Shown one piece after another: positions 4,601 through 61,477 of a stretch of 64,000 nt of DNA. This DNA is from Candidatus Enterousia sp. (GTDB lineage: Bacteria > Pseudomonadota > Alphaproteobacteria > Rs-D84), in the NCBI GenBank assembly GCA_045646605.1, contig JAZRLA010000002.1, forward strand, positions 15,940 to 79,939, in the 5' to 3' direction. Within the stretch, counting starts at the first letter, position 1. Each line of letters opens with the position of its first letter. A program made the position numbers and the translations under genes. The notes under the pieces are model-generated. The model was not told the DNA's origin. It did no database searches and was given only the letters and a program-made list of their open reading frames with translations.

Positions 4601-5756
4601 AATCTTCCAAATTGCCGAAGGTCACACTATCGAAGCCGGTACGGGTAGTTTGAAACCGTTCATCGGTAAAAAATTAAACCAGGAAGTGTTCGAAGGTATA
4701 AGACCGGCCGATTTCAAAAAGTTGGTCATATCTAACAAGGAAGCCCAGGCGAAAATCGAAGAAATTCGTGATGTGCACATCTTGACTTTGAAACAGTTGA
4801 ATGAAAATGCCGATCGCGAAATCGAAAAGGCGACCGAGAGCAATTCGCTGAATGCCGGTGTTTTGAAAGAAGTCAAGGTTTACATCGCACATAAAATGAA
4901 ATTGCAACCGGGTGACAAAATGGCGGGGCGTCACGGAAACAAGGGTATCGTTTCACGCGTTGTTCCAATCGAAGATATGCCACATATGGAAGATGGAACA
5001 CCGGTCGATATTGTTCTGAATCCGCTTGGCGTGCCAAGTCGTATGAACTTTGGCCAGATTTTGGAAACCCACCTTGGTATGGCGGCGCGCACGCTTGGTG
5101 AACAGATTGGGGCTGTTTTGGACGAAGTTAAACAAAAACGTGCGGTGACCGACGACCTGCGCGCGATAATGGGCAAGATTTATGGCAAAGACATGGCGGA
5201 AAAATTGGCCAAGATGACCGATACGGATGTTCGTGCCAATGCCGCGTTGTTGCGTGATGGTGTGCCGATGGCAACACCGACATTTGACGGTGCGAATGCC
5301 GAAGATATTCGTCGCATGTTAAAATTGGCAAAATTGCCTGAAACAGGTCAGTTCACATTGTATGACGGTGTAACCGGTGAAAAGTTTGCGCGTCCGGTGA
5401 CCGTTGGTGTGATGTATATGTTGAAACTGCATCATTTTGTGGACGAAAAGATTCACGCACGTTCAACCGCAAGTTATTCACTGGTAACGCAACAACCATT
5501 GTCCGGTAAGGCACACATGGGTGGCCAGCGTTTGGGTGAAATGGAGGTCTGGGCACTGGAGGCACATGGTGCCGCGCACTTGCTGCGTGAAATGCTAACG
5601 GTGAAGTCGGACGATATTGTTGGCCGTAACAAGATGTATGAATCCATCATTTCTGGCAGTGACGATATTCAAACCGGCACCCCAGAGGCGTTTAACGTGT
5701 TCGTTCGCGAATTGCGTGGATTAGGCCTGGCAATGACACCAAAAAAAATTGACTAA
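1620..5756 (+). CDS. rpoB: DNA-directed RNA polymerase subunit beta
   Basis: 1378 aa with unmistakable RpoB motifs throughout. Start at ATG 1620 (MAVIQKLRKSFGK…); the ORF-track extension from 1533 is probably not translated. Confidence 0.95.
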   Translation: MAVIQKLRKSFGKSFLQTPLPDLIEIQYNSYKEFLQGDVAPQNRKNKGLQSVFTSMFPIKDYAGAAELEFVEYNLEKPAYNVKECLARKMTYSSKLKLKLKLILWDVAEDGKKSLRDIKEQEIFMGEVPLMTERGSFIASGVERVIVSQMHRAQGVVFATTKEAKIAGNPITYTARIIPEHGSWIDFEESKGVIYVRIDRRRKIPATVLLRCLPCAEDEKKWVAEPRKPTIRGMSDTEILSVFYKRIALNNNGKLWVGDTSVFEGLDKYRLNYDLINPKDKKELAAKGDRLNAKRLGKIMTASKQFGILPDALVGEYLFDPIMSAGEVIYPSGTEITEEVLADIEKLGIKDISLISIDNTTITAHMRNTLVADKTTNREDALIEIYNIIRPGERPTLEAAINLFMRQGFEAAYYDLSPVGRFKMNKRLKIDSGKKPEDERLLTKNDFLAVLKTLTNIIDHKDTIDDIDNLSNRRVRTVGELLEQNFRTGMVRIERLVRESLSSPNIATMQPQDVVNVNPLMSLVAEFLGTSQLSQFMDAYNPLSELEHKRRISALGPGGLNRERAGIDVRDVHPTHYGRLCPINTPEGANIGLINHLASYARVNPYGFIETPYYVVENSKITDKMVYLTADEELGHKIAQGNTPTNDKGVLTEEMVTARVDGEFTRVPRGEIDLIDVEPRQVVSISTGLIPFVENDDANRALMGSNMQRQAVPLMRVQTPLVGTGIEREVARDSRTGKVAKHSGIVESADANRIVVKCMNSRNVVTGVDIYNLEKYERSNNDTILHQKPLVHAGDRISAGDIIADGSSMNYGELALGRNVLVAFVPWRGYNYEDSIVISERISRDDVFTSVKIVEKEIKVRDTQLGPESLTRDIPNVSEEALKNLDESGIIYIGARVKQGDILVGHVSPKSETLLTPEEALLRNIFGEKALNVKDTSLRVGPNEEGTVIGVNVLTRHGVKKDERTQMIELEKIAKINKDRDEEIQIMEKGFADQIFQIAEGHTIEAGTGSLKPFIGKKLNQEVFEGIRPADFKKLVISNKEAQAKIEEIRDVHILTLKQLNENADREIEKATESNSLNAGVLKEVKVYIAHKMKLQPGDKMAGRHGNKGIVSRVVPIEDMPHMEDGTPVDIVLNPLGVPSRMNFGQILETHLGMAARTLGEQIGAVLDEVKQKRAVTDDLRAIMGKIYGKDMAEKLAKMTDTDVRANAALLRDGVPMATPTFDGANAEDIRRMLKLAKLPETGQFTLYDGVTGEKFARPVTVGVMYMLKLHHFVDEKIHARSTASYSLVTQQPLSGKAHMGGQRLGEMEVWALEAHGAAHLLREMLTVKSDDIVGRNKMYESIISGSDDIQTGTPEAFNVFVRELRGLGLAMTPKKID

Positions 5757-5852
5757 AGTGTTAGTGTAAGTGGTTAGTGGTTAGTAAAGAAATGCTAGCC
5801 GTCACTAACCACTAACACCGACCACTAACCACTAAGTAAGGAGCTTAGAAAA
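5757..5852. repeat. rpoB-rpoC intergenic inverted repeat built from GTGGTTAGTG/CACTAACCAC units
   Basis: …GTGTAAGTGGTTAGTGGTTAGT…GTCACTAACCACTAACACCGACCACTAACCACTAAG…. Imperfect long hairpin; the same unit recurs elsewhere in the window. Confidence 0.55.
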
Positions 5853-10020: not shown

Positions 10021-10099
10021 CACCAAGCCAGGGCAAAGCCCTGGCGCAGTCTCGGCGTAGTCGCGTCACCGCTGTGCGGTGACGGACAAAGACGGATAA
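10021..10099. repeat. 79-bp GC-rich two-hairpin repeat, copy 1
   Basis: CACCAAGCCAGGGCAAAGCCCTGGCGCAGTCTCGGCGTAGTCGCGTCACCGCTGTGCGGTGACGGAC(A/G)AAGACGGATAA. Identical except for 1 nt to the copy at 10570-10648. Internal hairpins CCAGGG-CAAAG-CCCTGG and GTCACCG-CTGTG-CGGTGAC. Confidence 0.75.
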
Positions 10100-10111
10100 C
10101 CACTAACACTA

Positions 10112-10510
10112 ATGACTTCCAAACCTGCAATTTTTTGTGATATCGACGGTGTGGTGTCCAAGAAATGGGCTATTGCCGACTATGATCGCTTTGGTGAACC
10201 GAACGCGAATATGATACGTGTACTCGAAACATTGGGTCGGGATTTTACAATCGTCTTTATAACGGGGCGTTGGGCGATGGGCCAGGCCAAGGTGGACGCA
10301 TTTATCGACGGATTGCTGCCGAATATTAAAAAAATCGTATTCTGCAAGCCGCACGATTACCCCGGTACAACGGCGGAATATAAATTGGCCAAGATTATGG
10401 AATTGGAATCAGATGGCTATCAATTCTATCTTGGGCTTGACGACCATAGTGCGGTAATTGGATTGATGCACAACCACGGCATGTTCGTCGCCAAGGTGAT
10501 AAGTGACTAG
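10112..10510 (+). CDS. Minimal HAD-superfamily phosphatase (132 aa)
   Basis: HAD motif I FCDIDGV, motif II (T in VFITGR), Lys, and motif IV-like GLDDHS. Bracketed by the 79-bp direct repeats. Confidence 0.55.
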   Translation: MTSKPAIFCDIDGVVSKKWAIADYDRFGEPNANMIRVLETLGRDFTIVFITGRWAMGQAKVDAFIDGLLPNIKKIVFCKPHDYPGTTAEYKLAKIMELESDGYQFYLGLDDHSAVIGLMHNHGMFVAKVISD

Positions 10511-10569: not shown

Positions 10570-10648
10570 CACCAAGCCAGGGCAAAGCCCTGGCGCAGTC
10601 TCGGCGTAGTCGCGTCACCGCTGTGCGGTGACGGACGAAGACGGATAA
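10570..10648. repeat. 79-bp GC-rich two-hairpin repeat, copy 2
   Basis: Direct repeat of 10021-10099 with one mismatch; preceded by CACTAAC-type motifs. Confidence 0.75.
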
Positions 10649-12425: not shown

Positions 12426-12685
12426 GTGTGTGTCCCTCCTTTCTGGGTGTTTTGTTTGAAATTTAGCCAGATTTTGTATTTACACCGTGTATTTACATTT
12501 TGCCGACTAAAATTTCCAAATTGTTTGTTGTTTTGCCCGAAAATCTGCGGTTTTTGCAAAGTTTCGAACGATTTTCCTCTGGTCCCTTTGTCTATACAGT
12601 GATGATAGAATAAAAACGAATCGCGGGTCAAGTGAAAAAATAAAAAAAATGAAAAAAAAATTAAAAAATTTTTAACCAATTGTAT

Positions 12686-18600: not shown

Positions 18601-21600
18601 ATGAACATGAAAAAGACTTTTATTTATTCAATCTGTGGATGTTTTGTAACCGGTGTGGCGACCGCGACCACATATTGGCTAAACATTATTCCAAATACAT
18701 GTACGGGGCACACAATATGCCTTACCCAGCCCACGGATGGTTCATGTTGTTCCGCAAACGATACCATTGAAAAATTTCCTGTTGCCTCTGGATCCAAAGG
18801 CGGCACCATTTCCCTGGGGTCCCGCAATATTGCAATATTTGATGCGACCGGTACGCCAACAACGTTTACCAACGAAAATATTCGTAATTCATTGATAAAC
18901 GCCACATCAAATGGAAGTCACCTTAGTGTTACAAAAATTCCCGCGGACACAACATTGGTATCCGTCACGGTTAATATGCAGGGCGGTTCATTACCCCTTG
19001 GGTTTACGGGTAACACGATGGCGATGGAACCGGGCGATGTAATCCTGTCTGCGGGCGTTACGCGTGCCGATGGTGCCAATTTGGCCGGATTTTATAAATC
19101 GGGTCAATCGCCGTCCACCGCAACATCAATTATAACCGTTGATAGCACACCAAGCCAAACATATATCGCAAAGTGGGAATGTGGCGAAGGTTTGGAAATG
19201 AATTCAAAGGGAACATGTATAAGTTCGAATACCGTTTATATGAAATCGGATGGTACGGTAATGGACCCCAATGAAATCGATATTAAATCCGGCGGTTCCA
19301 ATGGTTGCACTTTGTTGACCAAGGGCAAGGTTCATTTGTACGATTATAACCCAACTGCCCCCGATGATTTAAAGAATAATATGTATTATTATATGTATCG
19401 TGATGGTCCCAATGGTTCCTATGATAATAATATAATATATCGGCCATATTCGGACAGTGATCATAATCCATATATGGGAACTATTGTTACGTTAAACAAT
19501 ATATCCCAGGTTCAAAACTACAATTATTTACATACCGGAAGTCCGAACAATGGTGTAACACTGTATTGTCGTAGTAATGGATGCTGGTGGTCCGAACAGG
19601 GTGCCGAGTTACCCATGGTGGTATATCACACCAGTTCACAAAATGATTGTACGTGGTGCGGGTCCGATTGTACAATGTATACATATCCAAATAACGGCCA
19701 AACAATCTACTATTGGCAATGCCCTTGCATAAAGGCCTATGACGTCCCGGGCGAGGGCGAATGCGTCCCCGCATATCTTGGATGTACATATTTACCCCAG
19801 GTAACAGAAGATGGAACCACAGAAATGGTATGTGTACCACAAGGACAATATTCGGCCGCACATACCGAAGATTTAGTATGGGGATTACGTCAGCCAAAGG
19901 CAATCGGGTGGACTTTCCGCGGCTATTATCTTTCAAATACTGATGCAGACCTGTATACAACCGAAAATACAAATGTGGGCGCACCCGTAAATGGTTTCGG
20001 CACAGGAAACCCGAACAATCGGGAAAAAGTAATAAACATTACATCTCCAATCGCTGTATGTGGTACAAGTGGGCAAACGGCATATGAAATCACTCTTTAT
20101 GGTGCGTGGGCCAAAAACTGTAATCCTAGCGATCATGCGACATGTAATATGTCAATTAATGGCGTGGGCGCAAGTCCGTCATCTTATGGAACCGGCGACG
20201 TGTATTACAGCGCGTCATGCCAAAACGGGTACAATATAGAAAGCGGATCCGGAACGTATAATCCGGTGTGCAGTACGGATGTATCGGGTTCTGTGGACCT
20301 TAATTACAAATTTATAAATCAATACGGAAATTATATCAAGAAAAACAACAGCATGTACACTGTTGAGAACAGCTGTTCGTACGGGCAAGGATACACACTT
20401 TTAAGTGCGACCAGTTTCACCAACGCCCTTGGCACCGGGTATAGTTTGCGTTATTTAAAGATTGGTACTGGCAGTAATGGTTCATATTTTACCCAAAATT
20501 ATGGCCTTGGCTGTAGTACAAACGTGTTTGGCGCCGATGTAAATTCGGTCGATGTTACCGGGTACGTTTGCGACGAATGTGTGCCAGAGAACGGAACCTG
20601 TGTTGATGTCGATTACAGCCCATCTATACAATATCCCACCAGTGGTTCCGCACATCAAACCGCCACGTTGTGGGGTGCAAACACTAATAAAGGCTATACG
20701 GCATGCAAGAAATTAAGTTGTGCAGAGGGATACACCCTGCGGCAAAATGAAGCCACCGGTCACATGTATTGTGCACAAGAATGTGAACCCGGTAAAACGT
20801 TTCTTGATGGTGAATGTCGTACACCTTATGAGGCTTGCATATATAATTGTCAGCAAAACCAAGACCCGTCTAAGTGCGGCAGCAATTTAACAGATTTTTC
20901 AAGCTATTGCAGCACCGAAACATTTGTGTGTCCACCTTTAAACGCTCCAACGGGTCTTAGTATTACAAATGTGGCCAAGACAAACAGCCCCAAAGAATGC
21001 AAATATACGGTTGATTGCGCCAATGGTATCGGTACAGTATACGAAGGGGGACAGATGATCCATACCCAAGATAATGAGCTACATATATGGACAAGCAATA
21101 CTACGTCTGATTATATCCATTATAATGATGATGGCTCGGTTACGGTTACCTGTACTGATACAGACTGCAAACAAGAAAAGCTGAGTAATTTAAAGTGTCT
21201 GATTTGTCCGGCTTATAACGGGTCAGATACTACTGTAACTGTTCATAACCCGACGCGGAGCGATAAAAATCGCACCTGTTCATATAACATTAGCTGTAAA
21301 GCTACAGTGGTCCCAAGAATATTATTGAAAAAACGCGCAAGAAATGATAGCTGTTATGTGTGGAATGAGACTGATGAACCCAACTACTGTGCAATCGACA
21401 ATATTGACGCTGATTCTACGGATACTTTTACACCGACGGATACGGTTACATGCACGGCCAACCAATGTACGGCCGGTTATATGAGCACTCCTTACCACTT
21501 CTTGTCCACCGAATTTGCGAAATATAAATGTATACATACCAGCGCCTTCAGTTGCCCAACAATTAGTGGAAACAGCGGGGTAGCCGTCACAAAACGGCTA

Positions 21601-21900
21601 GGAACAGGCGAACAATGCACATACACATTGTCGTGCAATAATACTTCTCAAGTTCCGTATAGTGGTGGAGCACGCCCCAGTAGCAACTCTCCCACTGCAG
21701 TGACAATTTCTTGCGATGGGGTGGATGGATACAGCAATGCACCTTGCGTGGCGAGTTATTTAACCAGTAAGATACAAGCGTATATCTGTGGAGATACTCC
21801 GGGCTCTGGTGGTTCTGGGGATTCTGGTGATTCCGGCGGTACGGGTAGTGATGAAGGCGATATAGGTTCTGGTACCTCCGGTGGCACCCAAAGCAATTAA
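18601..21900 (+). CDS. Giant secreted Cys-rich surface protein (1099 aa), tandem to the previous one
   Basis: N-terminal hydrophobic signal. Cys/Asn/Thr/Gly/Tyr-rich throughout. C-terminal Gly/Ser/Asp tail (GSGGSGDSGDSGGTGSDEGDIGSGTSGG). 22 bp after the upstream gene. Confidence 0.8.
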   Translation: MNMKKTFIYSICGCFVTGVATATTYWLNIIPNTCTGHTICLTQPTDGSCCSANDTIEKFPVASGSKGGTISLGSRNIAIFDATGTPTTFTNENIRNSLINATSNGSHLSVTKIPADTTLVSVTVNMQGGSLPLGFTGNTMAMEPGDVILSAGVTRADGANLAGFYKSGQSPSTATSIITVDSTPSQTYIAKWECGEGLEMNSKGTCISSNTVYMKSDGTVMDPNEIDIKSGGSNGCTLLTKGKVHLYDYNPTAPDDLKNNMYYYMYRDGPNGSYDNNIIYRPYSDSDHNPYMGTIVTLNNISQVQNYNYLHTGSPNNGVTLYCRSNGCWWSEQGAELPMVVYHTSSQNDCTWCGSDCTMYTYPNNGQTIYYWQCPCIKAYDVPGEGECVPAYLGCTYLPQVTEDGTTEMVCVPQGQYSAAHTEDLVWGLRQPKAIGWTFRGYYLSNTDADLYTTENTNVGAPVNGFGTGNPNNREKVINITSPIAVCGTSGQTAYEITLYGAWAKNCNPSDHATCNMSINGVGASPSSYGTGDVYYSASCQNGYNIESGSGTYNPVCSTDVSGSVDLNYKFINQYGNYIKKNNSMYTVENSCSYGQGYTLLSATSFTNALGTGYSLRYLKIGTGSNGSYFTQNYGLGCSTNVFGADVNSVDVTGYVCDECVPENGTCVDVDYSPSIQYPTSGSAHQTATLWGANTNKGYTACKKLSCAEGYTLRQNEATGHMYCAQECEPGKTFLDGECRTPYEACIYNCQQNQDPSKCGSNLTDFSSYCSTETFVCPPLNAPTGLSITNVAKTNSPKECKYTVDCANGIGTVYEGGQMIHTQDNELHIWTSNTTSDYIHYNDDGSVTVTCTDTDCKQEKLSNLKCLICPAYNGSDTTVTVHNPTRSDKNRTCSYNISCKATVVPRILLKKRARNDSCYVWNETDEPNYCAIDNIDADSTDTFTPTDTVTCTANQCTAGYMSTPYHFLSTEFAKYKCIHTSAFSCPTISGNSGVAVTKRLGTGEQCTYTLSCNNTSQVPYSGGARPSSNSPTAVTISCDGVDGYSNAPCVASYLTSKIQAYICGDTPGSGGSGDSGDSGGTGSDEGDIGSGTSGGTQSN

Positions 21901-21977: not shown

Positions 21978-22200
21978 TTGCAGAGAATCGTCACCCCGCC
22001 GAAGGGCGGGGCCCAGGCCGAGCGTAGCGAGGACTTGCTCCGCAGGATTCTGAAACAAGTTCGAAATGACGATTTACTTGATGTCTGCGACGCAAGTTTT
22101 TACTTTCGCAAAAACTGGATCCCGGCCTTTGCCGGGATGACGGCGTTCTGGGAATTTGGCATAAAACACGGGCGCGAACGCGCCCGCACTAACCACTCAC
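21978..22200. repeat. Mosaic GC-rich hairpin repeat, instance B1
   Basis: Modules GTCACCCCGCCGAAGGGCGGGG, CCAGGCCGAGCGTAGCGAGGAC, GTCTGCGACGCAAGTTTTTAC…, GATCCCGGCCTTTGCCGGGATGACGGCGTTCTGG, then a GGGCGCGAACGCGCCC hairpin and CACTAACCACTAAC units. Shares modules with B2, B3 and B4. Confidence 0.6.
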
Positions 22201-22208
22201 ACTAACCA

Positions 22209-22499
22209 CTAACACTTGCGTGATACCCTTTCACGAAACTCTGCGCATGGCCGGAAAGAAACAACCCGTCGCGCCGTTACAATTGCCACCTCTCCGGTTT
22301 TTGGGTTGCGACCCACGCGTGCCGATTTATCCAAAATCTTGAATGTGCCGAAACCGGCAAACTTTACTTCTTCGCCATTTATTAATGATTCACATATTTC
22401 ATCAAATATTAAATCAATCAGTTTTCCTGACTGCGACGCCGTAAAGCCAAACTTGTCGCGCAATGTTAACGCCAAATCATTCCTTGTTATCGTTGCCAT
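22209..22499 (-). CDS. hup: HU/IHF-family DNA-binding protein
   Basis: 96 aa. …GFGTFKILDKSARVGRNPKTGEVAIVTARRVVSFRP… is the typical HU arm. Confidence 0.85.
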   Translation of the reverse strand: MATITRNDLALTLRDKFGFTASQSGKLIDLIFDEICESLINGEEVKFAGFGTFKILDKSARVGRNPKTGEVAIVTARRVVSFRPCAEFRERVSRKC

Positions 22500-22592
22500 T
22501 TTTTACATCCCCCGGTTATGTTTTGTATCTAAATACTGTGTCCAGATATTATACAGATTTTAATATAACTTGCAATATCAAAATCAAAGATT

Positions 22593-22824
22593 GTTAAAGC
22601 GCGATTAAGGTACGAAATGGTGATAATTCCAGAACACCGTCATCCCGGCGCAGGCCGGGATCCAGGCCGAGCACAGCGAGGACCCGCGTCGCAGACAGTT
22701 TGTCGTCGCTGTGCGACGATAAATCCCCTGCGGGGCAAGTTTTTGCATTTGCAAAAACTAGATACCGCCCTTCGGCGGTATGACAATTCTTTGGAATTTT
22801 AAGTGTCGTTAATTGCACATTGAC
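22593..22824. repeat. Mosaic GC-rich hairpin repeat, instance B2, flanked by an 18-bp direct repeat
   Basis: CCAGAACACCGTCATCCCGGCGCAGGCCGGGATCCAGGCCGAGCACAGCGAGGAC…GATACCGCCCTTCGGCGGTATGAC. Flanked by ATATCAAAATCAAAGATT at 22575-22592 and 22825-22842. Confidence 0.6.
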
Positions 22825-22857
22825 ATATCAAAATCAAAGATTAAAATATACCTGCGT

Positions 22858-22933
22858 GTCCCCATAGTTCAATCGGATAGAACAAGTTCCTCCTAAGAAT
22901 TAGATGTCGGTTCGATTCCGGCTGGGGATACCA
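22858..22933 (+). tRNA. tRNA-Arg (anticodon CCT)
   Basis: Manual fold: acceptor GTCCCCA/TGGGGAT; D stem GTTC/GAAC; anticodon stem AGTTC/GAATT with loop CTCCTAA; T arm GTCGG-TTCGATT-CCGGC; encoded CCA. Confidence 0.85.
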
Positions 22934-23286: not shown

Positions 23287-25275
23287 TTACCACAAACGCG
23301 TGCGTTCTTCGGGACGCAGGTACATTTTGTTGCCGGGTTTAACATTGAACACATCATACCATGCGTCAATATGCGGCAAAATTCCGTTCACGCGCCAACG
23401 ATTCAGCGAATGTTCGTTCGTTTTCGTTTGAACCAAAACCTGTTCATCGCGAATATTCCCCGCCCATGCGCCCGCGTACGCAATAAAGAACCGCATGTCC
23501 GGGGTAAGGTTTTGAACCGTTTCGGTTTTTTTACCAAAATTCTTATACGCCGTATACGCAATTGTCACACCGCCATAGTCCGCCAAATTTTCGCCCAGTG
23601 TAAATTCGCCATTCGCATGTGTGTCGGGCGCAACGACTATATTATCAAAATATTTCCGCATAACATTCGCGCGCGCGGTGAATGCGTTCGAATCCGCATC
23701 CGTCCACCAATCGCGCATATTGCCGTATTCATCAAAATGCCGGCCCGAATCATCAAACCCATGCGTCATTTCATGTCCAATTATCGCACCAATCGCGCCA
23801 TAGTTAAATGCATCATCCGCATTCATATCAAAAAACGGCGGTTGCAAAATTCCCGCGGGAAAGCAAATCTCATTCGTTGTCGGATCATAATACGCATTAA
23901 TTTCGTGCGCATTCATATACCAAAGCGTTGGGTCTTTTTCTTTGCCGATTTTTGCCAACCAAAATTCATCTTCGAATTTCGCAACACGCATCATATTTTC
24001 AAATAAACTTTCATTTTTATCCAAATGCAAATTTGAATAATCGCGCCATTTATCCGGATAACCGATTTTCGCCCGGAAAGCATTTAATTTCCGCAACGCG
24101 TTTGCACGTGTGTTATCCGACATCCAATCAAGTTTTTGAATGCGGGCGGTATATGCACGACGCAGATTTTCAACCAATTCTTGCATACGAATTTTTGCCG
24201 CGGCCGGAAAATATTTCGATACATAAAGTCGCCCGATTTCTTCGCCAATCGATCCATTCAACATACCAATTGCGCGTTTCCAACGGGGCTTTTGTTCACG
24301 TTGTCCCGACATTTCACGATTAAAGAAATCAAATGATATTTCGTATGTTTCATCGTCTAGTAACGAATCGGCCGCCAAAATAACATGATACTTTAAATAT
24401 GATTTTATTAAACTAAGGTCAGTATCGTTTATGATTTTTATCGATTCCTTTATCGCCTCTGGCTGACCCACATCGATAAATTTCGCGGCATTTGCGCCAC
24501 GTATATCGAAATACGTTTTCCAATCAAACCCACCATATTCACGAATAAAATCATCGCGTGAAATTTTATGATAGTTTGCATGCGGGTCGCGCAGTTTTTC
24601 TTTTGTATAAAAAGATTTTGCCATGCGCTCTTCTAAATCATAAATCTTTTGCGCATCCGCATTTACACCAAAATTTTTTAATTGTTTTACGATAAAATCC
24701 ACATACTTTTTACGAATTTCTTTTGTTCGTGCATCGTCATCAAAATAGTAATCACGTGGCAAACCGATGCCCGATTGATGCAAACCGTAAATAAAATGTT
24801 CACTGTCACCCGCATCAATTCCAACCGTGTCGCCCCAAAATCCAGAAAAATAGGCATGATGTTCACCCAAATATTTTGGTAAATCCGATTTCGATTTTAT
24901 TTTGTCAATTTTTTCAAAATACGGCTTAACAGGCTGTGTCTTATCGGTGTTCAATTTTTTTTCATCCATTGCGACACCGTAAAGCAGGCCGATCTTTCCA
25001 TTGTCATTTTCGGCGATTTCACGCACCCGATTAAGGTTTGTTTCATTTAATACCTCAAACACACCATATCGAACATAATCATCGGGAATCGGGTTTGCAT
25101 TTCGCCACCGCAACGTCACAAAGTCAAAAAAATCATCAGCCGGATTTATCGCAAAATCCAAATTGTTAATGTTGAAACCCGTATCCATTTTTTTACCCCC
25201 TTTGATTTGTATTGCAAACATTATTGCCAACACAACGGCAACAATTCCAAAAATGTTTAATAAAGTATGTCGCAT
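23287..25275 (-). CDS. pepO: M13-family zinc metallopeptidase (neprilysin/PepO-like)
   Basis: HEMTHGFDD zinc motif, NAYY, GENLADYGG. N-terminal membrane anchor. Confidence 0.9.
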   Translation of the reverse strand: MRHTLLNIFGIVAVVLAIMFAIQIKGGKKMDTGFNINNLDFAINPADDFFDFVTLRWRNANPIPDDYVRYGVFEVLNETNLNRVREIAENDNGKIGLLYGVAMDEKKLNTDKTQPVKPYFEKIDKIKSKSDLPKYLGEHHAYFSGFWGDTVGIDAGDSEHFIYGLHQSGIGLPRDYYFDDDARTKEIRKKYVDFIVKQLKNFGVNADAQKIYDLEERMAKSFYTKEKLRDPHANYHKISRDDFIREYGGFDWKTYFDIRGANAAKFIDVGQPEAIKESIKIINDTDLSLIKSYLKYHVILAADSLLDDETYEISFDFFNREMSGQREQKPRWKRAIGMLNGSIGEEIGRLYVSKYFPAAAKIRMQELVENLRRAYTARIQKLDWMSDNTRANALRKLNAFRAKIGYPDKWRDYSNLHLDKNESLFENMMRVAKFEDEFWLAKIGKEKDPTLWYMNAHEINAYYDPTTNEICFPAGILQPPFFDMNADDAFNYGAIGAIIGHEMTHGFDDSGRHFDEYGNMRDWWTDADSNAFTARANVMRKYFDNIVVAPDTHANGEFTLGENLADYGGVTIAYTAYKNFGKKTETVQNLTPDMRFFIAYAGAWAGNIRDEQVLVQTKTNEHSLNRWRVNGILPHIDAWYDVFNVKPGNKMYLRPEERTRLW

Positions 25276-48178: not shown

Positions 48179-48312
48179 GGCAAATAGTGGTTAGTCCGTC
48201 ACGACCGCGACGCGGCGTGCCGCGACGGGTGTAAGTGGTTAATGATTAGTGGGAAGTAAACCCCGCCCTTGCGGCGGGGTCGATGCGACCGAGCGTATGC
48301 AACGGTCAAATC

Positions 48313-50589: not shown

Positions 50590-50712
50590 GTCTCGCTGCA
50601 GCGTAAGCGAAAGTGGATGGCAGGGCCACTCAAGCAATTCACGAGTTGATTTTATTCGTGAATTGTTAATATTCGGAAAAGATATTAAAGTGTTTTTGAA
50701 TAACTATATTTA
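50590..50712. repeat. Island structured repeat, copy C1 (variant 5' hairpin, att-like core and module 2)
   Basis: …TCGCTGCAGCGTAAGCGA…TGGCAGGGCCACTCAAGCAATTCACGAGTTGATTTTATTCGTGAATTGTTAATATTCGGAAAAGATATTAAAGTGTTTTTGAATA. Confidence 0.6.
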
Positions 50713-50738
50713 ACCACCTGTTATGTAATAACTTTGTT

Positions 50739-51428
50739 TTATAAGTGTAATTGGTTATCCTTGTATTTTTCTTTTATTAATTGTGCGTATCTTAATGCAG
50801 CACATTTTATCAGGGATTCGCATTTTGTATAACCATCTTTTAACATTTGTTGTGCAGGACATACATCAGGTGTTGAAACTTGGCATTTTTCACAAGAAAT
50901 ATTTTGTTTTGGCATACAATCGTGCGTATCCCATGGTTTGTGCCACTTACATCCAGCACAAGCACCAAGAACACTCATCGAATCAAAAATATATAATTGA
51001 TCCAAGCGTTGTGATTGTATATTAACTTCCACGCAAGAACCAACAAGAAACGAGGGACCGTAAAATGTTAAAACATATGGGACAGAATATTTTTGCAACC
51101 TTTTAAGCATTTCGCATTCTTGCACTTCGTTCGCTGTACGATCTATCAATTTCTTGCAACATGTATTTCCACGCATACCATCAATAGAAATGAATCTTAT
51201 TTCCGTAAAATGTTGCAATTGTTCACGAAAACAATATTCGTTTTTCCATCCCAATACAGGTTTTTGTAAATTTTCTTTCGAAACATGAATACTTTCTGTA
51301 TCTGTCGAGCGATTATATTGTGCTGTGTATACCATATCTTTTAATGCAGGACATTGCTGTGATTCTATATAACACCCATAGCATTGAAAGGCGATACAAT
51401 TATCTTTTGTATAAAATATTCTTTTCAT
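50739..51428 (-). CDS. Cys-rich hypothetical protein (229 aa), possible Fe-S or Zn protein
   Basis: About 24 Cys, including CIAFQCYGC (Cx4Cx2C) near the N-terminus, CC, CAGC and CEKC. No signal peptide. AT-rich codons. Confidence 0.5.
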   Translation of the reverse strand: MKRIFYTKDNCIAFQCYGCYIESQQCPALKDMVYTAQYNRSTDTESIHVSKENLQKPVLGWKNEYCFREQLQHFTEIRFISIDGMRGNTCCKKLIDRTANEVQECEMLKRLQKYSVPYVLTFYGPSFLVGSCVEVNIQSQRLDQLYIFDSMSVLGACAGCKWHKPWDTHDCMPKQNISCEKCQVSTPDVCPAQQMLKDGYTKCESLIKCAALRYAQLIKEKYKDNQLHL

Positions 51429-51484
51429 ATTAAAAACTTTTACATGATTATAATGTATGTGTTCCCAATATCAATATAAAAAAA

Positions 51485-51690
51485 GTTCGTAAATCAGCAA
51501 AACGGTCTCTGTTTTCAACACCTAACTTTCGAACTCACAGAACTATTGGAAATCCAATCAAAAAACCACCCGTTTGGGTGGTTTGAATTTTTGGCAGGGC
51601 CATCTGTGCAATTCACGAGTTGATTTGATTCATGAATTGTTGTTGTTTGGAAAAGAAATTAAGATTTTTTTGAATAAATACTATCATATC
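51485..51690. repeat. Island structured repeat, copy C2 (module 1 + TGGCAGGGCC + module 2)
   Basis: AGTTCGTAAATCAGCAAAACGG…CTTTCGAACTCACAGAACTATTGGAAATCCAATCAAAAAACCACCCGTTTGGGTGGTTTGAATTTTTGGCAGGGCCATCTGTGCAATTCACGAGTTGATTTGATTCATGAATTGTTGTTGTTTGGAAAAGAAATTAAGATTTTTTTGAATA. Confidence 0.65.
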
Positions 51691-51727
51691 TGAACTATGT
51701 TATGCAAATTATTGACATTTATATATT

Positions 51728-52603
51728 TTGTATTATATTATAAACGACAATAAGAGAAAAAACAAATTGGCAATTCAAATAGATTTTGACCGAGCCTTGC
51801 ATGATATGGAATATCATGATTCAACAACACGGGTAACCTTTGGGCCGTATTCGCCGACATATCTTATCGCAACAGATGAAGATGCAAACCAAGATATCAA
51901 ACGTTATATGTATAACGGAAAAGATAAAAAATACTGCGAAAAAGTTCTGACCGTATCGGCATCTGGCGACCATCCATTATTTTGTAAAATGTATGGTGCT
52001 AAACAAATTACTACTTTTGATATAACATATGCATCCAAAATAATTATGGATATTAAAACACTGGCTATAAAAAAGCTTACTTTTGACAACTATTGGCAAT
52101 TATTAAAAGATTTATGGAACAATCCGAACATTACATCTGTGTCAAATTTTGAGAGTATTATGCAAAAATTAGATTCAAACGAACAAAAATATATTCATAC
52201 AATGGATAGAAAATTCGCATTATTTAACTTTGGAACACCGCCAGGTTATTATCATGTTTCGGATACAAATAACCAAAAATCACTTTACGAAGGATTACAT
52301 CTGGCTGATTTGCCAACATTTCCTTTTATTTGGACTGATATTGAAGACCTGGACGCAAAATTGGGTGATAATACATATGATTTTATACATTTATCCAATA
52401 TCTTAGATTTTGTAAATGATGACATCAAAGTATCTGTTTTAAAACAATTGACGCAAAGATTGAATTATGGTGGTCGTATATTAATGCGCAGAATAAATGG
52501 CAATTATCAATTAGTCGACATATGTCAAAACATAGAAAAACAATCAGATGATTTAGGCTTTGTTAATCGTTGGGAACAAATGATTTTATTAAAATGCAGA
52601 TAA
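51728..52603 (+). CDS. Hypothetical protein (291 aa); weak resemblance to the DUF3419/BtaA-like SAM-binding family
   Basis: …VLTVSASGDHPLF… and …IHLSNILDFV… resemble DUF3419 signatures. AT-rich. The assignment is tentative. Confidence 0.5.
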   Translation: MYYIINDNKRKNKLAIQIDFDRALHDMEYHDSTTRVTFGPYSPTYLIATDEDANQDIKRYMYNGKDKKYCEKVLTVSASGDHPLFCKMYGAKQITTFDITYASKIIMDIKTLAIKKLTFDNYWQLLKDLWNNPNITSVSNFESIMQKLDSNEQKYIHTMDRKFALFNFGTPPGYYHVSDTNNQKSLYEGLHLADLPTFPFIWTDIEDLDAKLGDNTYDFIHLSNILDFVNDDIKVSVLKQLTQRLNYGGRILMRRINGNYQLVDICQNIEKQSDDLGFVNRWEQMILLKCR

Positions 52604-52620
52604 TCAAAACAATTTAATAG

Positions 52621-52815
52621 TTCGTAAATGTATGAAACGGCGGCGGTTTTTGATATCCGACTTACGAACTCACAGAACTATTGGAAATCCAATCAAAAAA
52701 ACACCCAAACGGGTGTTTTTGATTCTTGGCAGGGCCATCTGTGCAATTCACGAGTTGATTTGATTCATGAATTGTTGTTGTTTGGAAAAGATGTTAAGGT
52801 GTTTTTGAATACTAC
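52621..52815. repeat. Island structured repeat, copy C3
   Basis: Same two-module architecture as C2. The module-1 terminator hairpin reads CACCCAAACGGGTG here, against CACCCGTTTGGGTG in C2 (same stem, loop reverse-complemented). Confidence 0.65.
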
Positions 52816-52868
52816 CAACTTGACTTTGTAACGATTTTTGCTACTTTCTCAAATGAAAAGAGATATAT

Positions 52869-53273
52869 ATGTCAGATATTTCAAATAAAGAATACATCAC
52901 TATAAATAAAGATGGGGTTTTTGTTGGTGGAGAACCCGCAATTTATTATCGTGGCAAAAAAATGCATTCACAAAGTTTGACACAAACATATTTCCTTTAT
53001 ATACAAGAGAAATTTCCAGTAATTGAAGAAGTTCACGTCTTATCATCAAAAACCGAAGCCAAACTATACAATATAAATGAAAAGCCATCACAACAAGATG
53101 GAAAACATACATGGTGTCGTGTAAAATTTACTAACGGTAAAATGGGATATTGGACACCAAATTTAACGTGGAATAATGCGGTAGAAACCTATTGCTATTG
53201 TGTTGCTGATATTGGTTGGGATGCTGAATTTACCAAAAAATTATTCTTACCAAAAAACGAGAATGAAAGATGA
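52869..53273 (+). CDS. Hypothetical protein (134 aa)
   Basis: Clean ORF. Sigma70-like promoter (TTGACT-17-TACTTT) and RBS upstream. No recognisable domain. Confidence 0.5.
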   Translation: MSDISNKEYITINKDGVFVGGEPAIYYRGKKMHSQSLTQTYFLYIQEKFPVIEEVHVLSSKTEAKLYNINEKPSQQDGKHTWCRVKFTNGKMGYWTPNLTWNNAVETYCYCVADIGWDAEFTKKLFLPKNENER

Positions 53274-53277
53274 TAAA

Positions 53278-53412
53278 TTAAAAAGTTTGTAAATTGGCAA
53301 AACGGTGGCTATTTTTACTACACAACTTACGAACTCGTGAAAGTGTTGGAAAACAAAGAAAAATCGGGTATAAAACCCGATTTGTTTATTTTGGCAGGCC
53401 TACTCGGATTTG
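53278..53412. repeat. Island structured repeat, copy C4 (module 1 only) ending in a 21-nt copy of the tRNA-Glu 3' end
   Basis: GTTTGTAAATTGGCAAAACGG…ACTTACGAACTCGTGAAAGTGTTGGAAAACAAAGAAAAATCGGGTATAAAACCCGATTTGTTTATTTTGGCAGGCCTACTCGGATTTG. The final 21 nt match the 3' end of the tRNA-Glu gene (20 of 21 identical). Confidence 0.65.
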
Positions 53413-56741: not shown

Positions 56742-58106
56742 ATGCCGGCAAAAAGTGTTAATGATATTGTTGCCCTGTGCAAGCGTCGCGGGTTTATATT
56801 TACCGGGTCAGAGATTTACGGCGGACTGGGGGGGACATATGATTACGGCCCGTACGGCGTGGAATTGATGAAGAATATTCGCGCCGCATGGTGGAATGCG
56901 ATGATATATTCGCGCAACGATATCGAAGGTTTGGACGCATCACTGATTGGCAACCGGCTTATGTGGAAATATTCCGGACACGAAGGCGGTTTTTCCGACC
57001 CGTTGGTTGAATGCAAAAAATGTGGCGCCCGCATGCGCCAAGATAAAATGCGCGACCAAACAAAGTGCGACAATTGCGGTTCAACCGATTTAATGCCGCC
57101 GCGTGAATATCAATTAATGATGGGCCTTTCGATTGGTGCGGTTGCGGACGGCGAAGTCAACGCGTATCTGCGCCCGGAAACGGCGACAACAACATATATA
57201 AATTTCAAAAACGTGCTTGATTCCACACCGCACAAGTTGCCTTTTGGAATCGCCCAGATTGGCAAGGCGTTTCGTAACGAAATTTCCCCGCGTGGCTTTG
57301 TGTTCCGTATGCGCGAATTTGAACAGGCGGAAATGCAATACTTTGTCCGCCCGGGCGAAGATGAAAAATACTTTAACCAATGGCGCGAAACGCGTATCGC
57401 GTGGTGGACAAACGTCCTTGGGATACCGGCGAATAAATTGCGTTTCACACCGCACGAAAAATTGGCGCACTATGCCAAGGCCGCGGGCGACATCGAATAT
57501 GAATTCCCTGATGGATTTGATGAGGTCGAAGGTGTCCATAATCGTCAAGATTTCGACCTGGGGTCACATACGAAATCGCAAAATGAGTTCAAGATTGCGG
57601 CGCACGTTATGGAAAATAACGACAGCACGATAAAACTGTGCTATTCCGACCCGCAAACGGGCGAAAGTTTTATTCCGTATGTCATCGAAACCGCGATGGG
57701 TGTGAACCGCGCGATGATGGCACTAATGATAGAGGCGTATACCGAAGAGCAGTTACCCGACGGCAAATCACGCACGGTGTTAAAATTAAAACCGGCATTG
57801 GCACCGGTCAAGGCGGCGGTTATACCATTGGCACGCAATGTTCCCGAATTGGTGGGTTTGGCGGAAAATATCGAAAACGATTTACGGAAACTTGCCATCG
57901 GCCGTATCGAATTGGAAAATTCCGGTAATATCGGTAAAAACTATCGCCGGCACGATGAAATTGGCACGCCGGTTTGTATCACCGTTGACCACCAAACATT
58001 GGAAGATGGTATGGTGACAATGCGTTTCCGCGATACAATGGAACAGGTTCGTGTTGCGATTGCCGATGTGCCAGGGCGGGTGATGGAAATAGTCAGAGAG
58101 TGTTAG
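56742..58106 (+). CDS. glyQS: Glycyl-tRNA synthetase, single-chain alpha2 type
   Basis: …FTGSEIYGGLGGTYDYGPYG…, a class II core and a C-terminal anticodon-binding domain; 454 aa. Confidence 0.85.
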   Translation: MPAKSVNDIVALCKRRGFIFTGSEIYGGLGGTYDYGPYGVELMKNIRAAWWNAMIYSRNDIEGLDASLIGNRLMWKYSGHEGGFSDPLVECKKCGARMRQDKMRDQTKCDNCGSTDLMPPREYQLMMGLSIGAVADGEVNAYLRPETATTTYINFKNVLDSTPHKLPFGIAQIGKAFRNEISPRGFVFRMREFEQAEMQYFVRPGEDEKYFNQWRETRIAWWTNVLGIPANKLRFTPHEKLAHYAKAAGDIEYEFPDGFDEVEGVHNRQDFDLGSHTKSQNEFKIAAHVMENNDSTIKLCYSDPQTGESFIPYVIETAMGVNRAMMALMIEAYTEEQLPDGKSRTVLKLKPALAPVKAAVIPLARNVPELVGLAENIENDLRKLAIGRIELENSGNIGKNYRRHDEIGTPVCITVDHQTLEDGMVTMRFRDTMEQVRVAIADVPGRVMEIVREC

Positions 58107-58107
58107 T

Positions 58108-58240
58108 GGTAAATACGTCATCCCGCGGTATCGGGCCCCGCAAAATTTGAAAAATTTTGTGGGTGATGACAGGCGGGATCTTGTGGTTTCAACTATAATA
58201 ACAAGATACCGCCTTTCGGCGGTATGACGTTTTACTCTTT
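58108..58240. repeat. Mosaic GC-rich hairpin repeat, instance B3
   Basis: CGTCATCCCGCGGTATCGGGCC…GGGTGATGACAGGCGGGATC…GATACCGCCTTTCGGCGGTATGACG shares modules with B2. Between convergent glyQS and 58232..59917. Confidence 0.5.
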
Positions 58241-61075: not shown

Positions 61076-61194
61076 ACTTTTTTCTTTTCTCTCTTGGGGG
61101 TATTATATCATAAAATCGACATTAAAAAAAGCACTTTAATATGAAAACTGTTCTAAAAACAGGATTCTTATATACATCATTGATTTTGATGACG

Positions 61195-61345
61195 GGAATT
61201 CTTTTCCAGAGAGTCGTCACACCGCTGAAGAGCGGTGCCCAGTCGTCGCGATAGCGATGACTTGCCCCGCAGGGAATTTTTTATCGCTTTGCGATGAAAA
61301 ACATAAATGTCTGCGACGCAAATTTTTGCATTCGCCGGGATGACA
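61195..61345. repeat. Mosaic GC-rich hairpin repeat, instance B4
   Basis: GTCGTCACACCGCTGAAGAGCGGTGCCCAGTCGTCG…GTCTGCGACGCAAATTTTTGCATTCGCCGGGATGACATCGTTCTAG. Modules are shared with B1 (GTCTGCGACGCAAGTTTTTAC… CCGGGATGAC…GTTCTGG). Confidence 0.5.
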
Positions 61346-61477
61346 TCGTTCTAGAAATTGTCGCATTATCGCAGTATTTCTATTATAGAAATTAGCAACA
61401 TATACAAACGTAACGATAATACAAAAACGGACCCAATCGGATCCGTTTTTTATCTGTGCCTGGGTTCGGTTTTTTCT

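Follow-up and report, generated by a model that had tools for sequence, protein, structure and literature searches.

We analysed a 64,000-nucleotide stretch of DNA from Candidatus Enterousia sp., an uncultured alphaproteobacterium of the rumen (the window; contig JAZRLA010000002.1 of assembly GCA_045646605.1, positions 15,940 to 79,939 of the forward strand), which carries four intergenic copies, named E1 to E4, of a hairpin repeat family. One of them, E2, is a 232-bp insertion with an 18-bp target duplication, located between a tRNA-Arg gene and an ihfA-like gene. The four elements are small, non-coding and non-autonomous repeats of a genus-wide family, and their assignment as a member, resembling a transposable element of the miniature inverted-repeat type (MITE), of a known superfamily of repetitive extragenic palindromes (REPs) is supported by the data presented below. 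Taken together, these data make it probable that E1 to E4 form a family built on pairs of the published SRM hairpin, and that E2 is its full-length, MITE-like form, moved in trans and inserted with a long duplication at the edge of a promoter.

The history of the E2 site was read from related loci, collected by a scan of species representatives with the M13 peptidase PepO (23287-25275). The scan yielded 80 loci, nearly all from uncultured Alphaproteobacteria, proteobacteria or Candidatus Enterousia and mostly from ruminant gut. The ten closest species representatives (L001-L010) have a PepO 86-90% identical to that of the window and DNA 80-84% identical, which places the window in another species of this group. 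Look-ups of the exact IHF and PepO proteins, aimed at conspecific strains, returned no record. The 18-mer ATATCAAAATCAAAGATT is present exactly twice in the 64 kb, at 22575 and 22825, and allowing 2 mismatches lengthens the repeat to 23 nt. Nine of the ten closest loci have the 18-mer once, 14-15 nt from tRNA-Arg, and no insert; in L010 it is also single and without insert, with a 1-nt insertion in the 18-mer. These empty sites read tRNA - TATATTTTAATCTTTGATTTTGATAT|TGCAAGTTATATTAAAATCTGTATAAT. The window equals the empty site up to ...GATAT, then shows 232 extra bases, and then repeats AATCTTTGATTTTGATAT|TGCAAG.... In BLAST alignments the breaks are located exactly at 22592 and 22825, and in the empty site of L002 the same 18 bp are covered by both alignments. 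The empty sites and the exact breakpoints together establish that E2 was inserted in the lineage of the window with an 18-bp target duplication, absence of the element being the ancestral state. The original prediction, made from the sequence alone, had read this copy (its B2) either as a MITE-like insertion with target duplication or as a repeat-mediated rearrangement; the former reading is supported and the latter is not needed. The 18-mer, double in the window and single in relatives, is not a common motif independent of the element. Its two copies had been placed correctly on either side of B2, but they abut AT-richer arms of 34 nt and 28 nt and not the GC-rich core, and the extent of the mobile unit has to be corrected from the ~170 bp of that core to 232 bp.

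Further copies of the complete element, from other metagenomes, were found by searching the spurious open reading frames (ORFs) that span E2 against a protein collection, and then their contigs. One of them, in L201 (958-1189, 232 bp), is 75.5% identical to E2 and the other, in L214 (557-793, 237 bp), is 82% identical, arms included in both cases; the identity between these two is 87%. With ~232-237 bp, the complete mobile form is below the ~400 bp that bounds a MITE, and it consists of the core and of AT-richer arms of 26-35 nt, which end in a second terminal inverted repeat, GTTAAT.C.CAATTAAAA. In L214 this outer inverted repeat matches at 21 of 23 positions (GTTAATACACAATTAAAAGGGGA vs GTTAATGCCCAATTAAAACGGGA). 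Both sister copies are flanked by direct repeats. In L201, ATAATAAAATAATTTTT(T)GTTA is found on both sides, with copies of 21 and 22 nt, and directly abuts the ends of the element. In L214 the flanks are TGAAGCGTTTTTTATT and TGAAATGTTTTTTATT, 16 nt with 2 mismatches, the right copy beginning 1 nt past the element end. The flanking repeats of the three elements are unlike in sequence, showing that their source is the target DNA and not the element; the arm-core junctions are identical in E2, L201 and L214, which indicates that the composite moved as one unit. The three copies therefore have in common a unit with defined ends.

We then considered the position of these insertions relative to promoters. 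The left duplication copy begins with the first -35 base of the ihfA promoter (22575); the duplicated 18 bp lies directly upstream of the -35 box, with a one-base overlap, and the same 18 bp forms the spacer of the divergent tRNA-Arg promoter. At the empty site of L001-L010 (~12435-12490) the promoters of tRNA-Arg and of fabH/ihfA stand back to back and appear to share one palindromic -35 hexamer, TTGCAA; in the window the insertion appears to have separated them. As judged from their sequence, both predicted flanking promoters are intact after the insertion. On the tRNA side, where relatives have TTGCAA, the end of the element supplies TTGAC and the duplication supplies the following A and the spacer, and tRNA-Arg(CCT) thus appears to be driven by a hybrid promoter partly derived from E2. 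Promoter-like sites are found at the same place beside the two sister copies: TTGCAA-16-TATAAT (936->909) in L201, directly upstream of tRNA-Gln in the tRNA-Gln/MarR intergenic region, and TTGCTA-16-TATAAT (810-837) in L214, where the element lies between NADAR and the gene downstream of it. Each of the three intact copies has one duplication edge that shares exactly one base with the -35 hexamer, the promoter reading away from the element, and what is duplicated, 16-22 bp, is the AT-rich sequence immediately upstream of the -35 box. The element end that lies next to the promoter is not the same in E2 as in L201 and L214; orientation toward the promoter is therefore not fixed, as expected from symmetric ends. 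These ends read outward TTAAC|A, except for one end of E2, which has TTGAC|A. Promoter-like sites of similar quality occur about 3 times per kb, counting both strands, and the exact register is thus unlikely to have arisen three times by chance. We put forward, only tentatively, that the full-length element may be a promoter-targeting MITE. A trans-acting enzyme would cut where a TTGCWA -35 hexamer has its outer edge and again 16-22 bp upstream, the UP-element position would be duplicated, and the TTAAC/TTGAC ends would provide new outward -35 boxes. Two of the three intact full-length copies also adjoin tRNA genes (tRNA-Gln, L201:823-1290; tRNA-Arg, window 22575-22933), on the promoter side and not at the 3' end used by integrases.

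Other origins of the flanking repeats were considered and rejected. The 18-mers are not integrase att sites: the site is 5' of the tRNA, the flanks differ at the three loci and the 18-mer is the ancestral target. A long duplication around E1 (TCACAYTAACC, 11 nt with 1 mismatch) was discarded, as its right copy is part of a GTTAGTG-type run after the ihfA stop codon and the duplicated span would also take in the ancestral ihfA terminator. The best flanking repeat of E3 was 8 nt long and unconvincing.

The four elements of the window (Table 1) were delimited with a repeat finder and pattern searches over its full 64 kb. Each core is bounded by TTCCAGA(A/G)nnn-CGTCA... and by the inverse ...TGACG-nnn-TCTGGAA, with one hairpin just inside each bound, and the resulting inner TTCCAGA..TCTGGAA inverted repeat is present in all cores. 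The spacer between the two hairpins is ~100 nt long and contains two to three more hairpins: the AT-rich AGTTTTTGC-ATT-TGCAAAAACT, TTTGTCGTCGC-nnn-GCGACGACAAA and CCCCTGCGGGG. Order and orientation of these spacer modules vary among copies, and the central segment of E2, GCGTCGCAGACA...CCCCTGCGGGGC, is inverted relative to the end modules when compared with E1 and E3, so that the initial description of the family as a mosaic of shuffled modules was a fair one. The modules on which it was based were all recovered where it had placed them, and none is expected by chance: CCAGGCCGAGCRYAGCGAGGAC at 22013 and 22662 (0 expected), GTCATCCCGGC at 22131 (minus strand), 22639 (plus) and 61334 (minus), the AT-rich hairpin GCAAGTTTTT..GCAAAAACT at 22092 and 22735, and GATACCGCCYTTCGGCGGTATGAC at 22753 and 58197. 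A module had moreover been described in opposite orientations in B1 and B2, that is E1 and E2. An inverted match of 37 nt does exist (22115-22151 vs 22629-22665, 92% complementary), but the two elements also align directly over both end regions (21978-22045 vs 22627-22694, 76%; 22085-22141 vs 22728-22784, 81%). The module in question is the hairpin found at opposite ends of B1 and B2, because an inverted hairpin pair bounds each element.

The copies differ in completeness and setting. E1 is located 3' of the ihfA terminator and is convergent with a 1099-aa ORF; it has neither clear outer arms nor a target duplication, and L001-L010 have no such element at the same place. Its right hairpin is followed on the minus strand by a T-run, giving it the look of a terminator. 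E3 has lost ~24 nt and with them half of its other hairpin. In E4 the loop of the left hairpin holds a nested hairpin of ~45 nt, a nested-loop variant found again in L006, L008 and L012, while a simpler form of the E4 pair is present downstream of ihfA in L005 and L008.

Table 1. Features of the E1-E4 elements and of the E2 insertion site (window coordinates)
Feature	Position	Strand	Description
E1 (B1 of the original prediction)	21978..22154	no strand	core element, ends TTGCAGAG...TTCTGGGAA
SRM / CGTC-1 hairpin, E1 left end	21989..22016	+	CGTCACCCCGCCGAAGGGCGGGGCCCAG; published SRM motif match
SRM / CGTC-1 hairpin, E1 right end	22115..22142	-	CGTCATCCCGGCAAAGGCCGGGATCCAG; published SRM motif match
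ihfA-like gene	22209..22499	-	96 aa, between E1 and E2; NCBIfam IHF alpha 107 bits, cut-off 111
ihfA promoter (predicted)	22548..22575	-	TTGCAA-16-TATAAT; kept in L001-L010
Target-site duplication, left copy	22575..22592	no strand	ATATCAAAATCAAAGATT, 18 bp
E2 (B2 of the original prediction)	22593..22824	no strand	full-length element, 232 bp
E2 left outer arm	22593-22626		34 nt
E2 core	22627-22796		170 nt, TTCCAGAA...CTTTGGAA
SRM / CGTC-1 hairpin, left end of E2 core	22638..22665	+	SRM motif match
SRM / CGTC-1 hairpin, TGTC-tagged, right end of E2 core	22758..22785	-	SRM motif match
E2 right outer arm	22797-22824		28 nt
Hybrid tRNA-Arg promoter (predicted)	22820..22847	+	TTGACA-16-TAAAAT, 11/12 consensus matches
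Target-site duplication, right copy	22825..22842	no strand	ATATCAAAATCAAAGATT, 18 bp
tRNA-Arg(CCT)	22858..22933	+	tRNA match (Rfam)
E4	58116..58229	no strand	short inverted hairpin pair between convergent genes
SRM, right unit of E4	58202-58229	-	SRM motif match
E3	61204..61356	no strand	core element; central segment oriented as in E1
SRM in E3	61215-61242	+	SRM motif match

The hairpin that bounds the cores has a constant design: a CGTC/TGTC tag, an 8-bp stem, a 4-nt loop (GAAG, GCAG, AAAG or GAAA) and a CCAG tail. Among the six intact units of the window the tag is CGTC in five and TGTC in one, and the tail is CCAG in four and CTAG and CTTG in the remaining two, which as a set agrees with a CCA-type tail. 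The stems open with A-T then T-A, as in ATCCCGGC-GCAG-GCCGGGAT and ATACCGCC-GAAG-GGCGGTAT, three units starting with AC and not AT. E1, E2 and E4 are inverted pairs of this unit with the tags outward, and E3 is such a pair with one half deleted. The published SRM search motif, HGTCWYN(0-2)YYVSBRHN(0-5)WNVSBRGN(0-2)RNCYNB (PMC11893778), has 6 matches in the 64 kb, every one of them within E1-E4, compared to a mean of 0.08 in dinucleotide shuffles; in 1.55 Mb of Enterousia loci it has 19 matches, compared to 0-2 in shuffles. A metagenome scan with the exact hairpin ATCCCGGCnnnnGCCGGGATGACGG returned at least 120 contigs with a GC content of 37-72%, mostly from unrelated high-GC bacteria. Many of the contigs listed have a second, inverted copy of the hairpin some tens of bases away, and no additional composite element was found among the matches listed. 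The modules are thus not confined to the window; they are found across the genus, and the hairpin unit far beyond it. This hairpin module is widespread and already described, and the units belong to the known CGTC-REP / SRM / NTS-like superfamily.

Two lines of published work bear on these hairpins. CGTC-1 REPs have an 8-bp stem opening with A/T pairs, a 4-nt loop and a CCA tail; their tag is often TGTC, and inverted pairs predominate, with spacers of 20-100 bp, some of which contain stem-loops (Di Nocera et al. 2013, PMC3733652). The class favours Alphaproteobacteria and takes in Neisseria dRS3 and Rickettsia RPE-6; the survey gives no associated transposase and asks whether such repeats still arise (PMC3733652). 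The same hairpins, named NTS/SRM, are the targets of Ssn, a family of GIY-YIG single-strand nucleases (Chenal et al. 2025, PMC11893778). SsnA binds the hairpin solely when the DNA is single-stranded. It makes a single cut per strand, a few nucleotides (~3) 5' of the motif and confined to the strand in which the motif is in sense; the association of ssn genes with flanking inverted SRMs has been published as well, and the available text shows cutting beside SRMs and no mobility (PMC11893778). In agreement with that association, we found small GIY-YIG (Ssn-type) genes between inverted CGTC/TGTC hairpins, with the tails toward the gene, in L055 (13100-13560), L208-L213 (1430-1870), L207 (1340-1820), L111 (1000-1480) and L205, that is in Enterousia, Zixibacteria, Phenylobacterium and one high-GC bacterium. 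In Methylosinus (L204) the hairpins are only downstream of the gene. Ssn homologues were often located on very short contigs, and the hairpins that flank the Enterousia ssn genes (L055, L208-L213) have a 9-bp stem and a 5-nt loop. The idea that such a hairpin-flanked gene is the missing transposase was dropped, since these genes are already published as the Ssn family (PMC11893778).

The cores are highly structured. Predicted RNA folds reach -79 kcal/mol for E1 (z -5.6) and -85 kcal/mol for E2 (z -7.2), and the E3 core has a z of -5.2; folding thus confirms that all three are far more stable than their shuffles. In an alignment of six cores 95.8% of the cells are paired, with compensatory changes at 13 of 54 pairs, while shuffles gave 6.3 ± 1.7 (none of 500 reached 13) and slid partners 0-3. 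L016 carries a diverged core in which whole hairpins have been rewritten with compensating changes. The hairpin structure is therefore conserved, but palindromic hairpins are conserved equally on both strands and covariation does not point to RNA over DNA. A search of the window against Rfam at gathering score found four tRNAs only and no match to an element. The ORFs that the elements create are spurious, as had been suspected: they exist, and against 5.8 billion proteins they gave only 1 and 2 matches, each of which is another copy of the element. A 37-codon ORF (61143-61256, MKTVLKTGFLYTSLILMTGILFQRVV...) begins upstream of E3 and reads into it, and is either spurious or a small membrane-peptide gene with a 3' end replaced by E3.

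How could such an element move? We suggest that an enzyme acting in trans would recognise the outer inverted repeat and move the element; of the two cuts in the target, one would coincide with the edge of a TTGCWA hexamer and the other would fall 16-22 bp from it, and repair of the gap would generate the long and variable duplication. The SRM hairpins would probably serve as binding or cutting sites of a host Ssn-type GIY-YIG nuclease and need not drive insertion. Several observations weigh against this interpretation. The intact full-length copies number three, each from a different genome, and a matching empty site is known for E2 only; for L201 and L214 the duplications are deduced from the flanking repeats. 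The outer inverted repeat of E2 (GTTAAAGCGCGATTAAGG / GTCAATGTGCAATTAACG) matches at 13 of 18 positions, and that of L201 is weak, with one arm poorly conserved. No convincing outer arms or long duplications are found at E1, E3, E4 or L016, and the core may spread, or decay, by another route. Neither the window nor ~1.6 Mb of related DNA, a limited sample, contains a transposase or other gene with matching paired GTTAAT.C.CAATTAAAA ends, and the 64-kb window has no Ssn (GIY-YIG, cd10448-type) homologue. Finally, the promoter register consists of three cases noticed post hoc, and selection for insertions that spare promoters, rather than enzyme specificity, could lie behind the surviving sites. 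For the element as a whole the duplication length is unusual, and the target preference, though suggestive, is thinly sampled.

One of the four family members in 64 kb has arms, and BLAST and fuzzy-pattern searches for arms gave a single truncated candidate, in L020. Two other leads proved false: one was a site that many loci conserve near position 8990, the other lay in coding sequence of L032. The copy in L215 is decayed, and a scan of viral contigs for the conserved core segment gave no match. Copies without arms may once have been full-length and then decayed, in line with a proposal made for QMITE2, or they may have spread otherwise. One such route would be the spread of the core SRM pair through single-stranded DNA intermediates produced by an Ssn-type nuclease or an IS200/RAYT-like enzyme, in the manner of REPINs, with the arms and the duplication as by-products of repair or as a separate small MITE hosting a nested core. 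The ssn genes between inverted SRMs described above would supply the nuclease, most copies are cores without arms, and hairpins nested in hairpin loops recur in E4, L006, L008 and L012. We nevertheless regard this route as unlikely: with its single cut per strand SsnA cannot by itself excise an SRM pair, single-strand 'peel and paste' gives no duplication, the common arm-core junctions of E2, L201 and L214 show that the composite moved whole, and the hairpins around the Enterousia ssn genes are not of the 8/4 type of E1-E4.

Two further explanations dispense with mobility. The elements might be kept for a host function, as terminator or insulator, mRNA-stabilising hairpin, small RNA, or site for a nucleoid protein or gyrase, their distribution then reflecting selection. 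A minus-strand SRM followed by AGTTTTTG fits a terminator pattern in E1 and E2 and also in L201 and L214, E1 and E4 lie between convergent genes, the structure is conserved with covariation, and an RNA-element role has been proposed for REPs (PMC3733652). This is very unlikely as the main explanation, since E2, L201 and L214 are upstream of promoters, where transcription is least likely, presence or absence varies among sister species at the same locus, no element matches Rfam, covariation in a palindrome does not distinguish RNA from DNA, and the duplication would be left unexplained; a host function is compatible with MITE-like insertion as a secondary use. Least likely of all, in our opinion, is that B2 involved no transposition and is a 250-bp segment produced by template switching or tandem duplication of the promoter region, with filler caught between the 18-mers. 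It is true that bacterial transposases usually duplicate 2-14 bp, less than the 18 bp seen here, that the repeat extends beyond the 18-mer into mismatched sequence, and that REP sequences are known as join points of duplications. However, the supposed filler is a family member with the same length, ends and layout of flanking repeats at two unrelated loci of other genomes, and the sequence of the flanking repeat differs at each locus.

The surroundings of the E2 site vary within the group. The gene between E1 and E2, labelled HU in the original prediction, scores best as IHF alpha, just below the cut-off, and 57 related loci contain an orthologue. Between the promoter and ihfA, nine of the ten closest relatives have fabH (KAS III), apparently as a fabH-ihfA operon; fabH is missing at this locus in the window (22500-22560) and in L002, and the 64-kb window has no copy elsewhere either. 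In L011-L027 and others fabH-ihfA comes directly after PepO, in the opposite orientation and with no tRNA-Arg between, indicating an inversion or rearrangement of this region within the genus. Close relatives differ from one another in the DNA downstream of ihfA, convergent gene included; in the window this gene is the 1099-aa cysteine-rich ORF at 18601-21900, with a Gly/Ser-rich C-terminus and no NCBIfam match.

Other repeats were noticed in the window. Two 79-nt direct repeats (10021-10099 and 10570-10648, 99% identical, CACCAAGCCAGGGCAAAGCCCTGGCGCAGTCTCGGCGTAGTCGCGTCACCGCTGTGCGGTGACGG...) bracket a small ORF (10113-10509), which lies just after a long ORF ending at 9962 and by eye looks like a HAD phosphatase. 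They represent a second hairpin-repeat family, with a related module downstream of ihfA in L002 and 18 BLAST matches in the window and loci, and an insertion the size of a gene might be marked by the pair. The heptad GTTAGTG forms runs in intergenic DNA (GTTAGTGGTTAGTG, 9 matches compared to 0.23 expected). These runs are found in the window at 5756-5836, 22187-22217, 48231-48251 and 58100-58109, and in L004, L006, L012, L013, L017 and L022, with variant heptads GTTACTG/GTAACGA in L208 and L213. Read along the mRNA of the upstream gene, the heptad is GUUAGUG both past the ihfA stop and past the 5756 ORF, and it occurs on both strands between 5803 and 5836; it could be a conserved motif of 3' untranslated regions or one related to termination. 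Finally, 50618-53363 contains three tandem segments ~1 kb apart with stretches 70-85% identical, which suggests tandem paralogous genes; similar sequence is found beside the truncated element arm of L020 (1350-1500).

CGTC-tagged REPs (SRMs) are among the most widespread bacterial repeats, and their mode of spread has lacked a mechanism since 2013. Long duplications of 16-22 bp and targeting upstream of promoters are apparently not described for this superfamily in the available text of PMC3733652, from which the terms 'target site' and 'duplication' are both missing, or in that of PMC11893778, and the composite itself (two paired SRMs around a structured spacer, outer arms that have an inverted repeat of their own, and a duplication of 16-22 bp at the edge of a promoter) is likewise absent from those portions of the two papers. 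An insertion that can be placed phylogenetically, with defined ends, an 18-bp duplication and two sister copies, provides a concrete and testable unit. Its ends (GTTAATRCNCAATTAAAA) can be searched for in complete genomes as a route to the mobilising enzyme, and the apparent one-base register with -35 boxes makes a sharp prediction. For annotation, such elements matter because they create spurious ORFs and can rebuild promoters. If the full-length element were indeed a promoter-targeting MITE, CGTC-REP/SRM hairpins would for the first time have a documented way of reaching new sites, and the element would be a bacterial parallel to the yeast and Dictyostelium retrotransposons that integrate beside the promoters of tRNA genes.

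Among known systems, BIMEs of E. coli, NIMEs of Neisseria (units bounded by dRS3 repeats) and RIMEs of Rhizobium are intergenic mosaics of REP-type hairpins and variable linkers. The window elements resemble them as intergenic hairpin mosaics that occur in different combinations at the same intergenic site of related genomes; to our knowledge these arrays have been described without a unit of defined ends and without target duplication. Correia elements, which are Neisseria MITEs, share with E2 a small size, terminal inverted repeats and outward promoter boxes (here TTAAC|A or TTGAC|A) and, like some insertion sequence (IS) ends, create hybrid promoters, but they duplicate TA only and are not built from CGTC hairpins. 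REPINs and their RAYT partners (Bertels and Rainey 2011, PMC3116915) are similar in that an inverted REP pair is the replicating unit and persists vertically in a genus. Their tag is GTAG, they are associated with RAYT and no duplication is expected, whereas our elements are CGTC-tagged and duplicate their target, which excludes membership; a GTAG head before comparable hairpins had no match in the loci, and no RAYT was noticed, no search having been aimed at it.

The closest relation in sequence design is to CGTC-1 REPs and Ssn targets. The window units have the tag, stem, loop, tail, extragenic location, alphaproteobacterial host and inverted pairing of CGTC-1 REPs, and our tags-outward arrangement may correspond to the 'HH dimers' of PMC3733652; E2 differs as a phylogenetically placed insertion with an 18-bp duplication and outer arms. 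Likewise, the six units fit the SRM motif and are close to the NTS CGTCATTCCCGCGMAVGCGGGAATCYRG, and the genus has ssn homologues between inverted SRMs, but the window motifs sit in a ~232-bp element with its own terminal inverted repeat and target duplication, a composite that the available text of PMC11893778 does not describe. Long target duplications of variable length (8-514 bp), for which there is no mechanistic model, are produced by IS1549 and IS1634 (PMC2266710); the likeness concerns duplication length only and not ends or transposase, these being autonomous insertion sequences of 1.5-2 kb. QMITE2 of Coxiella burnetii measures 150-190 bp. Its full-length form carries terminal inverted repeats and is flanked by direct repeats of 7-9 bp; both are missing from the shorter copies, which are described as 'essentially REP elements' (Wachter et al. 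2018, PMC5896051). The direct repeats are shorter than the 16-22 bp found here and targeting of promoter edges is not reported for QMITE2, but in comparable size and in the coexistence of a full-length MITE form with REP-only short copies, a likeness of description and not of aligned sequence, QMITE2 is by analogy the nearest precedent for the elements of Enterousia.

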